In this document: positions 16,636 through 64,000 of the stretch, piece by piece
Numbering within the stretch: the first letter of the stretch is position 1
Layout: each line of letters starts with the position of its first letter
Source: Eledone cirrhosa
Taxonomy: Eukaryota
Direction: 5' to 3'
Length of the DNA: 64,000 nt
Assembly: GCA_964016885.1 (NCBI GenBank)
Contig: OZ024746.1
Coordinates: forward strand, 55,118,001 to 55,182,000
Position numbers and translations under genes: made by a program
The notes under the pieces: model-generated
What the model was told of the DNA's origin: nothing
Seen by the model: the letters and a program-made list of their open reading frames with translations, nothing else
The model's database searches: none

Positions 16636-18530
16636 ATTGTTATACTTGGGGAGGGTCATATTTGTGTAATATTCCCAGAATTAATAACAGACCACACTCA
16701 CTGTTTGGTTGGTTTTCGCTTTTCGCTTCTGTGTCTTTTATATCGGTAATCTAATTTATTCAGTCCTCAATGTTGCCATTGACTGACCAACGGTCAAAAA
16801 TAATACAGATACAATATAGACACATACACATATATATAGTTTATCAAAGTTCTTTCGTTGCACATCTGCAACATCGTCAGTGGTGCTATTGTTTCCTCCC
16901 GCACTAACAAGTTTGATTTAGAACGTAGCACAATGGAAAGTATCCAGAAGATAGCTAATTCCATACACCAGAGTATAACTGTAACTATCGTCTACCCTTC
17001 CAAACACTCTGACAATAGACTACCTGTATTAGACACGGAACTCTGGATTAACACTATAGACGAGAGAGCCCAAATTCTCCACTTACACTATGCTAAACCC
17101 ATGGCATCCAAATACCTGATACTCAAAAACTCAGCAATGTCCAGTAGTGCTAAGTTTAATATACTGATCGCAGATTTGGTACGAGTGATGAAGAATGTGT
17201 CCCGCATGTGCGACCCAGCAGAAATGGAAAGACACATCCAACACTTCATCAATCGCATGCAGTTCTCTGGCTACAACCAAAGAGACAGAGTCAGAGTATA
17301 CGAAGGAGCCATGGAGAAGTATAAAACCCTCATAGAAGTGGACATGAAAGGAATTTGCCCATTATACAGAAGCAAATCATGGAATAGCTTAGATACGGCT
17401 AGACATAAGATAGGGAAAGCCACCTCATGGTACGACAACCAGAGATACCAGAGTGTCATGTTTGTGGACGCTACCCCTGGAGGGAAATTAGCTAACCAGT
17501 GTAGAGAGGCACTGAGAAAGATTCACTTAAAGATACTAATAGGAAATGTATCATATGTAAGGTAAACCCCCGGATAAACTGTAAAACTAGAAACGTAGTC
17601 TATAGCCTAAGATGTACAGAGGGTACTTGCAGAAACATGACAACAACATACATAGGCGAGACAGCTCGTAGCATAGGTGAGAGGATAGACCAACACTGGG
17701 GGGAACTATAAGGACGAAAAAACGGTCCAGTACTATACGAACATGCCAGACAACAACACGACGGTAACATAGACAACATAGAAATTAGAATAATATCTAA
17801 ACATAGAAATGACCCAGCAGATAGGCAAATCAGAGAGGCCAGTGAAATAGAACTTAGAAGGCCATGACTAAACAGAAAGAATGAATGGAATAACAACAAC
17901 ATCCAAACAAACAATACTGACCTAAGAAAAGTATAAATAAATAAATAAATAAATAGATAAATAAATAAATAAATAGATAAATAAATAAATAAATACATAC
18001 ACAAGCACAATAACAACAAACACATATAAACACACACTAGTAAAGATAGAATACATTAACCGATACACAGTCACCCAATCACGAACACACATCAAACAAA
18101 ACACTATACACACACGCAAACGCATGCGCAAAGTAGACAAAATAAAATAAACAAACAAACAGATAAATAAATAAGTATATAGACAGACTAAATAAAAATG
18201 GCGTAGACATACAATGTAACGGGAGGAATCAATAGCACCACTGACGATGTTGCAGATGTGCAACGAAAGAACTTTGATAAACTATATATATGTGTTTGTG
18301 TCTATATTGTATCTATATTATTTTTGACCGTTGGTCAGTCAATGGCAACATTGAGGACCGAATAAATTAGATTACCGATATAAAAGACACAGAAGCGAAA
18401 AGCGAAAACCAACCAAACAGTGAGTGTGTTCCGTTATTAATTCTGGTAATATTACACAAATATGACCCTCCCCAAGTATAACAATATTTGTTTCGACACA
18501 CGATTTCATATAAAAAACCTCGCAAAACTA
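16636..18530 (+). mobile_element. 5'-truncated PLE (RT thumb + GIY-YIG) with 3' pLTR and an inverted pLTR copy at the 5' end, inside (TA)n
   Basis: ORF 16858..17565 has LPVLDTELW, HYAKPMAS and RMQFSGY. 17577..17890 reads [13 protein letters not shown]...[12 protein letters not shown]. 16636..16901 is the reverse complement of 18220..18485. Confidence 0.92.
18236..18280 (+). ncRNA. Minimal hammerhead ribozyme motif; mirror copy on the minus strand at 16841..16885
   Basis: cacca-CTGACGA-t-gttgca gatg tgcaac-GAAA-gaac-t-t-tgat. Stem I is weak. Confidence 0.7.
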
Positions 18531-35534: not shown

Positions 35535-35564
35535 GTATATATATGTATGTATATATATAATAAT

Positions 35565-36455
35565 TGTTATTAGCAAGACATACCCGTTCCAAAGACCCTC
35601 ATGTATAGATAAGAAATGTATAACCTGTAAAATAAGCCCCCATATTAACTGTAAAACTAGAAATGTAGTGTATAGCATAAGATGTACTGACGGACAATGT
35701 AGAAACAAAAATATAGTGTACATAGGTGAGACAGCTCGTAGTATTGGGGAACGGATAAATGAACACTGGCGAGACCTTCAAGATAATAAAGAATCATCTG
35801 TACTCTACCAACATGCTAAGATAGAACACAAGGGTAAATTAGAGAACATAGAAATTAAAATAGAATCTACACACAGAAAAGATGCAATGTTTAGACAAAT
35901 TACAGAGGCAATAAACATAAAAGAATTACAACCAAAATTAAATAGAGAATATGAGTGGAACAGCAACATCACAACTTACAATTAAGGACAAAATAAAAAA
36001 ACACACACACATAGAACAAACAACCAACCAATAACATGTACATAAATAAACAAATAGATAAATGAACACAAACACACACAGACACCCGGATGTGGCGCAT
36101 GCGCAAACTGAGCACACAACACACACACAGAAACAAAATGGCGTAGCACAGAAGAAAGGAAAGGCACATAAACAAAGAAAGGAATCCCCAGTCACTGAAG
36201 AGGTCACAGAGTGTGTGACGAAAGGACTATGAATATATATAAACAACTATCTGGTTGTGGAACCAACCAACCAACCAGAAATTTATAAATTTGTAGATTT
36301 GTAAATTTATAAATTTATAAATATATAATAAATTGAAGTGAAAGCAACTGGTGCGTGTGTTTCTTATTGGCAACATGACCCTCCCAAAGTATAACAATAT
36401 CGGTTTCAACACACGATTTCAGATAAAGAATCCTGCTAAACAAATTCAGAAACGA
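35565..36455 (+). mobile_element. PLE 3' end: GIY-YIG plus pLTR with hammerhead at 36191..36233
   Basis: CITCK...[13 protein letters not shown]...[16 protein letters not shown]...RQITEAINI...LNREYEW. Downstream gtca-CTGAAGA-ggtcacagagtgtgtgac-GAAA-ggac-ta-tgaa. Confidence 0.92.
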
Positions 36456-50486: not shown

Positions 50487-50645
<159 letters not shown>

Positions 50646-50649
50646 TCTT

Positions 50650-50825
50650 ATGGGCCAAATCCTGGATATACTGCAATACCAGGCCAACCCGTGGCAAAGG
50701 CGGAGCAAGCCTCTAACTCTTCGCCAAGTTCTAAAAATCAGTTTAATATCGATGGTCCCATATAGGGACCATATCAGATAGTAAGCTGATAAGAACAGAT
50801 ACTACATTTTGATCTTAGCCAAAAG
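50650..50825 (-). pseudogene. RNU2: U2 spliceosomal snRNA copy lacking roughly the first 13 nt (probable retrocopy)
   Basis: Minus strand cttttggctaagatcaaaatgtagtatctgttcttatcagcttactatctgat, Sm site gatttttag, gcttgctcc stem-loop and cctggtattgcagta..tccagg stem-loop IV. Confidence 0.93.
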
Positions 50826-51927
50826 AAATGTTTTTCTTATATCAAAGTTTAATGGGCTTCCACTGATGATTTATAAACGCCCACCTAAATATATTCTTAC
50901 ATGAATGTATATTAGGCTTCTACATAAACTGGAAATATTCTCCGAATTTGTAGAAAACTTATAATGAAACAATTGTTTGGAAAGAGAGATATATTTAACT
51001 TTAATTATATCTCATAAAATAATACAACTGGCTTTTCCACATAATACATATTGTTAGCACCCCAAACACTTAAATTGGGTTTATATTAAAATATAACCTA
51101 ATGTTTGTTGAGTGAGATGGTTACCAGTCAGAGATTAGCTTTAAACTATCTCTGTTATTGTATTAATATTTTACTCTTGATTGGCCAGAGGTCTTTATTT
51201 CCAGGTACCTTATAAATTTGACTTTCCGTATTTATTACTGTTGTGCGATATTGTGTTTTTTTTTTGGTTGTAACTTCTCTGTTTTTTAGCCTAAGAAAAT
51301 ATATATATGCCTATGTATATAATTACATGCATACATTTATTTTTTTAAATTAATTGAGTTCTTTACACTAGGAATTGATATTAGTTTTGAAATAACTAAT
51401 TAACCCGCGTGTGTTTTATATTTTACTCTTAATTCGGCCGGAGATTTACATTCCCATTTGCCCTTTAAAGCATAACTTTCCGTATTTACTACGGTTACGA
51501 GATGCGGTTTCTTATTCAGGTACAACCTCTGATTTTAGCCTAAGAAAATATCTATATGCGTGTGTAATTTATACACGCATATATTTATTTTTTAAATTTC
51601 AATTGAGTTCTTAACACGTTGGATTGATAATGTTTTCGAATAAACTGATTAACCCGCGGGTATATTATTTTTTTTCCTCCTTTCGTGGATCGTAGTTGTC
51701 TCCCCTTCCCGCTTAGTGACGCTATAACACTTCCTCAGTCAAAAACTGCTGGAATTTCAAATTTGCCGGTCATTCGATGCGGGAAGGAGCAACTTAACGG
51801 ACACGATTTATAACCGTGGTAAGAAATGTTTTTCTTATATCAAGTTTATATTAAAATATAACCTAATGTTTGTTGAGTGAGATGGTTACCAGCCAGAGAT
51901 TAGCTTTAAACTATCTCTGTTATTGTA

Positions 51928-51930
<3 letters not shown>
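50823..51930 (+). mobile_element. Non-coding pLTR/retrozyme-like repeat with partial tandem organisation; family copy at 63595..64000
   Basis: aagaaatgtttttcttatatcaa at 50823 and 51821. 51080..51167 is repeated at 51846..51932. Internal ~250-bp duplication. Ends in (TA)n. Confidence 0.75.
50858..50982 (+). ncRNA. Hammerhead ribozyme motif with large branched stem II insertion
   Basis: ttcca-CTGATGA-t ttataa [~80 nt, two hairpins] ttataa t-GAAA-caattg-tt-tggaa. Confidence 0.7.
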
Positions 51931-51986
<56 letters not shown>

Positions 51987-52924
51987 GTGTGTTTGTGTGT
52001 GTGTGTATGGATATATAGGGAAAGAGATACGGCCGGAGATCAGCCGTCGGGGTCCTGATTCTTTTCCTATTACGCACTCTACTACCTTAATTAACGAGTA
52101 CGCTGGTGCGTTATAGCCCACCTCGCTACTTACCACACTTTCCCCATATGAATATATATATATTTAAATATGTGTGTTTTCGTGAGTGAGTGAATGTGCA
52201 TGTATTGGTTTGTGTCATTCGTTGGTTGCTCTCTCGGTTCATTTACGTCGGATAATCCGGCGGTCTGGAGGAGCGATTCGCAGGATAATCCGGTAACGAC
52301 ACCCGCACTATCCGTTATGATTTTTCCTCCAATCACTCTTCCAGCAAACAGCTCCACATTTCTGGCTCCATTGCATAAAATGTGTTTCTATACACGCGCT
52401 TTATAGCCGGGTAAATATGGAAATTTTGACATGGAGACATCAATAGATCGCACTTACCCCTCCGGCTCGGCTCCTCTAACCTCCATATACTTTTATATAA
52501 ATGTATACTGACACGTCTCCATCTATTACACAAACGGATCTAGCTCTCATACGCAGCCACACATCCCAAATGTAGACATAATCACACATGTATAAACGAC
52601 CCCCCTCATATACCTCTAGACATACATAACTCACACATTTTCATACATAACGCACACATTCTGATTAATCAAGGGCATGTACACATGATATAGCCCCACG
52701 TTCAAACAGGACACATGTTGTAGCCGTCTATGCCGAAACCAAAAGACATATAGACGACATAACTACAGAATAGCACCCCTTCCACCCTGAATTTCTAGAA
52801 TAATGGCTATTTTGCAAATGCCCCTATAGGAAAATTTACATAATGTTTATGTTAAAATAAAATGTCATGTTTACACACGGAAAAAACAAGTAGATATCTT
52901 TTATCATAAAAAGAATGATTGCCA

Positions 52925-63493: not shown

Positions 63494-63596
<103 letters not shown>

Positions 63597-63844
63597 CTAA
63601 TTGAGTTCTTAACACGCAGGGTTAAAATTGTTGAAAAAATTAATTGACCCACGTGTAAATTATTTTACTTTCTTGTGTTTCGCGATTGCCTCCCTTTTCC
63701 GCTTCGTGACGCTGTGAAATTCCTCATTCTGAGACTGCTGGAATTTCAAATTTGGCGGTCATTATGATGCGTGGAAGGACAATTTGCTGACATGAAAACT
63801 GAGAGTGGTAAGAGATTTTTTCTTATATCAATGTTTGACGGGCA

Positions 63845-63966
63845 TCCACTGATGATTTATAAGTGCCCACCTGCATATGTTCTTACAGAAAAATATGCAG
63901 GCTTCTACATAACCCGGAAACATTCTCCCAACTTGTAGTAAACTTATAATGAAACAATTGTTTGGA
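63845..63966 (+). ncRNA. Second copy of the large-stem-II hammerhead motif
   Basis: tcca-CTGATGA-t ttataagt [two hairpins] acttataa t-GAAA-caattg-tt-tgga. Confidence 0.7.
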
Positions 63967-64000
63967 AAGAGAGATATATTTTAATTTTAATTATATCTCA

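Follow-up and report, generated by a model that had tools for sequence, protein, structure and literature searches.

The window analysed here, a 64,000-nucleotide stretch of the Eledone cirrhosa genome (contig OZ024746.1, positions 55,118,001 to 55,182,000), contains a minus-strand U2 snRNA sequence lying head-to-head with a plus-strand repeat element, the pair being enclosed by two (TA)n tracts (Table 1). The U2 sequence was detected by an Rfam scan as a match at 50645-50832 with a score of 133.5 bits against a cut-off of 46, and is identical to the genome's own tandem U2 genes at 173 of 176 positions (98%). Its 3' end is separated from the left tract by a short filler, and no poly(A) is found at the copy, as the sequence-only reading had described. 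The fusion of U2 and repeat through three shared bases and the termination of the far repeat end in (TA)n were likewise borne out; the unit itself, which that reading had closed at 50982, in fact runs to 51932. The filler and the adjoining TA match the minus strand of the element at 11 of 11 nt, a post-hoc and weak correspondence, and the filler may have been templated by that strand. The fillers of the two other fusion loci described below (L002 and L032) gave no exact match in the templating check.

Table 1. Features of the U2-element locus, and a second copy of the element family, in the 64,000-nt window.
Feature	Position	Strand	Remarks
Left (TA)n target tract	50487..50645	.	
4-nt filler between U2 3' end and (TA)n	50646..50649	-	
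U2 snRNA retrocopy	50650..50825	-	covers nt 14-189 of about 191; differs from the gene array at 3 positions; promoter and 3' flank absent
3-nt microhomology at head-to-head junction	50823..50825	.	Bases common to U2 and repeat
Segment Z, 345 bp	50823..51167	+	Conserved across subfamilies; last base is the family's fixed end
Predicted type I hammerhead	50854..50983	+	By eye and alignment; no Rfam match
Internal subrepeat X1, ~250 bp	51168..51418	+	
Internal subrepeat X2, ~250 bp	51419..51672	+	75% identical to X1
Segment Y	51673..51820	+	Completes the ~998-bp monomer
Second Z copy (Z')	51821..51932	+	hammerhead lost through a ~228-bp internal deletion; its 3' end is the family's fixed one
Right (TA)n target tract	51933..51983	.	
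Second, more diverged copy of element family	63577..64000	+	TA at both ends, no U2; continues past the window end

Most of the U2 genes of this genome are found in a 2.2-kb tandem array on contig C3. In the assembly (G000), tandem U2 arrays are located at C3:307.34-307.46 Mb (about 50 copies) and C13:36.17-36.18 Mb (about 5 copies), and a U6 array at C19:31.78-31.84 Mb (about 30 copies). No homology to the upstream or downstream regions of U2 genes was detected around the window copy (L001), although five gene-like U2 loci do show upstream homology; the flanks of the window copy match a SINE-like repeat only. Its 3' end, at nt 189, coincides with the positions at which many other retrocopies stop (189-192). 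The score above the Rfam cut-off, together with the lack of gene flanks and the stop at the end of the RNA, identifies the sequence as a retropseudogene, and in all likelihood the copy is dead and the locus functionless. Among 58 dispersed U2 copies, the 5' start lies at nt 1-7 in 26 and at nt 14-16 in 10, so the truncation at nt 14 in the window represents a common stop. No U2 gene context is present in the window. Least probable of the explanations considered here is a U2 gene that has decayed and been interrupted by the element, or else a chimeric assembly, given that true genes retain upstream homology, that the copy stops at the inferred mature 3' end and carries private differences, and that the same anatomy recurs at two other loci. 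What can be said for it is that no contig piece from other sequencing runs, among those listed, spans the junction, a negative of no informative value, since repeats interrupt contigs and the insertion may be polymorphic.

The element joined to U2 has the order Z-X1-X2-Y-Z' followed by (TA)n, corresponding to 1.1 monomers of a ~998-bp repeat. Its family was mapped from 29 distinct close copies, and in all 29 the 3' end falls at Z345-351 within (TA)n while the other end is variable; 25 of the 28 scorable 5' ends are in TA and the other three are not. Eleven of the 29 copies are longer than one monomer, and one carries a self-inverted arm. A second young subfamily has a ~790-bp monomer with the same Z and the same end. 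A fixed 3' end with 5' truncation, together with partial tandems, a TA target and inverted arms, is the pattern expected of a Penelope-mobilised element; the 30-40 bp tail that is an optional Penelope feature was not present at the sampled 3' ends. A tblastn search with a Penelope-like protein gave no match to the element in the window, and no ORF-linked copy occurs among the loci of either subfamily. No copy was met in 150 kb of arbitrarily placed sequence and two were met in 488 kb of unselected flanks, encounters few enough that the copy number is a rough one. When 56 element loci (52-54 distinct) were scanned with Rfam, no further ncRNA turned up at the variable end, indicating that capture is rare per element copy. 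The only other match was at a duplicated locus (L026/L027), where an internally deleted 5S rRNA copy is situated in the TA tract just past the element's 3' end, fused to a short SINE-like tail. The divergent geometry of the U2 fusion had been likened to self-inversions elsewhere in the window; inverted pairs do exist there (1-602/1633-2235, 19331-19503/19735-19907 and 52926-53241/53955-54267), but they belong to other repeat families.

The hammerhead noted by the sequence-only reading is supported by a recognisable core, stems and a palindromic tetraloop in an alignment of seven sequences, but not by Rfam, which returned no hammerhead match in 50820-51990 at E<=10. The predicted core comprises 50863-50869 and 50966-50969, with a predicted cut after 50977. 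Stem II is long (~95 nt) and branched, and stem III consists of 2 bp closed by the tetraloop. All eight aligned rows retain the CUGANGA and GAAA motifs of the core without change. In a subfamily of 74% identity the palindromic loop is replaced by a different palindrome and the triplet is GUC. Across the alignment, 94% of cells are paired and four pairs have changed on both sides, three of these being in an inserted hairpin; the support for the structure is moderate, since it comes from just seven related sequences from which the structure itself was drawn. Modelled as a monomer, the constrained hammerhead fold falls short of the minimum-energy fold in stability by 4-14 kcal/mol, and the hammerhead may need the pseudoknot or a dimer to form. 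Segment Z is predicted to carry a type I hammerhead with putative self-cleavage activity. Position Z43, inside the hammerhead core, is the site of two unrelated junctions (L002 and L044).

Rfam-family searches of the genome for U2 and U6 returned mostly gene arrays, and exact sequence patterns were therefore used. A U2 3' motif was matched 97 times and a 5' motif 128 times, the latter being used for the 100 matches listed; copies lacking both motifs escape such a search. Removal of the arrays, of the five gene-like loci (L105, L109-L112) and of a duplicate (L126, of L113) left the 58 dispersed copies referred to above, with two small U2 gene clusters represented by one member each. Three of the 58 (the window copy, L002 and L032) are fused head-to-head to the element family, and none of the remaining 55 is joined to it in any orientation. 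Ten of the 58 end directly in (TA)n, and the three fusions account for three of these ten. The sequence-only reading had proposed, as a check, to score how often truncated snRNA copies abut such repeats head-to-head inside (TA)n; for U2, the fusion recurs at two loci besides the window. In the window, U2 nt 14-189 meets the element through a 3-nt overlap. In L002, U2 nt 1-191 is joined at Z43 via short re-copied repeats, and in L032, U2 nt 127-202, which includes precursor sequence and ends at a TA-like stretch of the precursor, is joined inside X1 via a 5-nt filler. The three fusions involve three subfamilies; for the two besides that of the window, identity to the closest copies of window type is 85% and 91-92%.

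The divergences of the two partners are compatible with a single age at each of the three loci. In the window, U2 differs from the genes at 3 of 176 positions and the element from its nearest sister at 15 of 998; in L002 the values are 6 of 189 for U2 and 3.6% between internal duplicates; and in L032, U2 differs at 1 of 76 positions and the element is 98% identical to its sisters. The age intervals are wide (0.4-4.9%, 1.2-6.8% and 0-7.1%, respectively). If U2 and the element shared TA tracts by chance, 0.025-0.15 such loci would be expected, with a probability of three or more of 2e-6 to 5e-4, assuming about 2 million TA tracts and 5,000-30,000 element copies, a range based on the element density in the sampled sequence. 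These figures bear on the possibility that two insertions took place, in which a U2 retrocopy first entered (TA)n and the element was afterwards added beside it, with deletion of the intervening TA and of the U2 5' end as the 5' side was joined. Such a sequence of events is physically possible, as free U2 copies in TA without such an element exist (L071, L121 and L188) and three of the 28 element copies have non-TA 5' junctions, and U2 and the element have a common target. It would have to have happened three times on the same side, in the same orientation and with total loss of the TA, against an expectation of at most 0.15 before geometry is considered; moreover, U2 nt 1 is intact in L002, and the ages of the partners are compatible. 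Two separate insertions are accordingly considered unlikely.

It is instead considered probable that U2 and the hammerhead-like non-autonomous element were fused in one twin-priming insertion involving two RNAs and, probably, a Penelope-type enzyme. The enzyme would cut both strands of the (TA)n target; element RNA would be copied from one cut, in the bottom strand, and U2 RNA from the other, at the top-strand TA end, and the two cDNA ends would then join via a few shared bases or filler. U2 is placed on the top-strand end because the plus strand reads as U2 antisense running into element sense. The element RNA would correspond to the plus strand, with a multimeric or circular form as the template and internal priming at a fixed site that lies about 190 nt beyond the predicted ribozyme cut. 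U2 would be primed at its mature 3' end in the window and L002 and within a 3'-extended precursor in L032, and reverse transcription of the window copy would have stopped at nt 14. Priming on two strands is plausible since a purified Penelope-like protein, as described in the main text of PMC11167929, cuts and extends both target strands, and it also starts internally. Counted against twin priming is that the target-site duplication is unreadable, both ends being in (TA)n, and the 3-nt overlap alone is weak evidence for the manner of joining. The earlier proposal that a Penelope-like reverse transcriptase primed U2 in trans at the second nick is supported: the geometry requires a U2 cDNA primed from the opposite strand, and it recurs at three independent loci of compatible ages. 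The Penelope-like identity of the enzyme is an indirect assignment.

The genome contains a young, abundant autonomous Penelope-like family with TA ends and many head-to-head pairs (L099-L102, L092). The autonomous element has open frames of up to 1261 aa and weak Pfam matches to a reverse transcriptase and a GIY-YIG nuclease, both below the curated cut-offs. A CX4CXXC motif read from the sequence ahead of the nuclease fits the Neptune/Nematis linker as presented in the main text of PMC8557442. A sense-strand hammerhead motif lies about 200 nt before the TA-joined 3' end, and the arms are head-to-head; the motif in L092 gave no Rfam match at the gathering score. Fragments of the family occur in the window at about 16900-17870 and 35550-35980. 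No similarity was found by blastn between the element fused to U2 and the one autonomous Penelope-like family examined; with the two families unlinked by sequence, the reverse transcriptase is taken to be probably Penelope-like from the structure of the element and its target. By analogy with the autonomous element, the plus strand of the non-autonomous element would be the RNA, and U2 would stand in place of the inverted 5' arm.

The missing sequence link also leaves room for a single twin-priming event performed by a LINE-type reverse transcriptase, an alternative judged quite improbable. Twin-primed snRNA chimeras are documented for L1 (PMC4476161, main text), and LINE-like ORFs as well as sense chimeras of U2 and U6 with SINEs are present in this genome, where LINE-type machinery also copies U2, as seen in sense fusions to tRNA-like SINEs. 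The element, however, brings with it neither poly(A) nor a simple-repeat tail, and the Penelope-like structure set out in PMC8557442 is matched by its permuted, multimeric copies, by a fixed start at an internal site, and by the hammerhead, the inverted arms and the TA target. Very unlikely is a different polarity, in which the element RNA is the minus strand and the reverse transcriptase switched templates from U2, or U2 was ligated to ribozyme-cut RNA, so that the chimera would have a single sense. The predicted hammerhead core is on the plus strand, the fixed end lies away from U2 at all three loci, and the three junctions differ, none being at the predicted cut. Such a polarity draws some support from the position of both outer ends in TA, from which the order of events is not directly readable, and from L244, where a U6-repeat junction is present in both arms, such that chimeric templates or fold-back may occur. 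Fold-back or a pre-formed chimeric RNA of the L244 type cannot explain an arm that is present only once. Ligation of U2 to ribozyme-cut RNA was rejected on the grounds of orientation and of junctions away from the predicted cut.

The twin-priming insertion favoured here has a close precedent in mammalian LINE-1. The main text of PMC4476161 describes Group IV chimeras in which inverted U1, U2, U5 and one U6 are fused to L1, and explains them by twin priming; antisense 5S, tRNA and U5 chimeras are treated in the same way in PMC13174262. The mechanism is less of a novelty than the sequence-only reading had implied, since antisense snRNA/LINE-1 twin priming, U2/L1 included, is already published. 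As in the Group IV chimeras, the snRNA at the three loci here is opposite to, and directly joined with, a 5'-truncated element. The Group IV cases described there pair L1 or SVA with an snRNA that internal priming has shortened at the 3' end, whereas the partner here is a hammerhead-bearing non-autonomous element in (TA)n, and the U2 sequences retain the 3' end of the mature RNA or of its precursor (at nt 189, 191 and about 202) and are variably truncated at the 5' end.

The element also resembles the non-LTR retrozymes, which are proposed in the main texts of PMC7229834 and bioRxiv 10.64898/2026.07.22.740005 to be non-autonomous Penelope derivatives. Like these, it is non-coding, AT-rich and multimeric with a predicted type I hammerhead, and it has a palindromic tetraloop and, where stem II begins at its base, a U-U, both similar to motifs described for axolotl in the retrozyme papers. 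Retrozyme monomers are given there as 170-400 nt, whereas the monomers here are about 998 bp and about 790 bp, and, unlike in the retrozymes presented, stem II is long and branched and the copies are dispersed, 5'-truncated and in (TA)n. The element may therefore work like a non-LTR retrozyme without being a typical one. With Penelope-like elements, as portrayed in the main texts of PMC8557442, PMC3846280 and PMC11167929, it shares partial tandems, 5' truncation, a head-to-head arm, a TA- or AT-rich target, an internal start of reverse transcription and the capture of unrelated sequence. It departs from them in that the inverted arm is a cellular snRNA and in that the element has no ORF, while neither a tail nor homology to the pLTR of the autonomous family was found.

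How the inverted head-to-head arms of Penelope elements form is described as an open question in PMC8557442, and self-priming on an antisense template is the proposal of PMC3846280. An arm made of foreign RNA is impossible by fold-back of one template, so the three loci constitute natural evidence for two-template priming. They also lend themselves directly as substrates to the in vitro Penelope assay that is already established (PMC11167929), and they show how pseudogenes of snRNAs and pre-snRNAs can arise without poly(A). In a literature consisting mostly of the main texts of open-access papers, supplements aside, no account of Penelope-like elements or retrozymes capturing snRNAs was found. 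Within that literature, what is new is the Penelope/retrozyme host, the recurrence and the priming at the U2 3' end, the mechanism itself being known for LINE-1 and snRNAs including U2. A broader reading is slightly favoured, in which any RNA can be used at the second cut made by Penelope-type machinery, with U2, pre-U2 and U6 being primed there repeatedly. If it is true, Penelope head-to-head arms would arise at least in part from two separate templates and not from self-priming, and Penelope-type reverse transcriptases would be an unrecognised source of snRNA pseudogenes in invertebrates.

snRNA sequences occur in comparable positions on other TA-targeting repeats at five further loci (L124, L127, L150, L244 and L260). 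In L124 (G000:C22:16.369 Mb), U2 nt 2-170 ends in a short TA run and is head-to-head with a ~165-bp piece that carries a degenerate hammerhead-like motif. In L127 (G000:C2:217.908 Mb) U2 nt 41-189, and in L150 (G000:C10:48.07 Mb) a full U6, lies between two inverted arms of another family with a hammerhead motif. L244 (G000:C1:148.857 Mb) is a palindrome in which the same fusion of the U6 3' end to a TA-targeting repeat is found in both a short and a long arm, which suggests an origin by cDNA fold-back or from a pre-existing chimeric RNA. Fusions in the sense orientation are also present: U6 is joined in sense to another TA-ending repeat family, which has a hammerhead motif elsewhere, in L168 and L175, and U2 is fused in sense with the 5' end of a tRNA-like SINE in L103, L108, L113/L126 and L123. 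Four copies (L108, L123, L070 and L135) match the U2 gene as far as nt 206-209, corresponding to a 3'-extended precursor.
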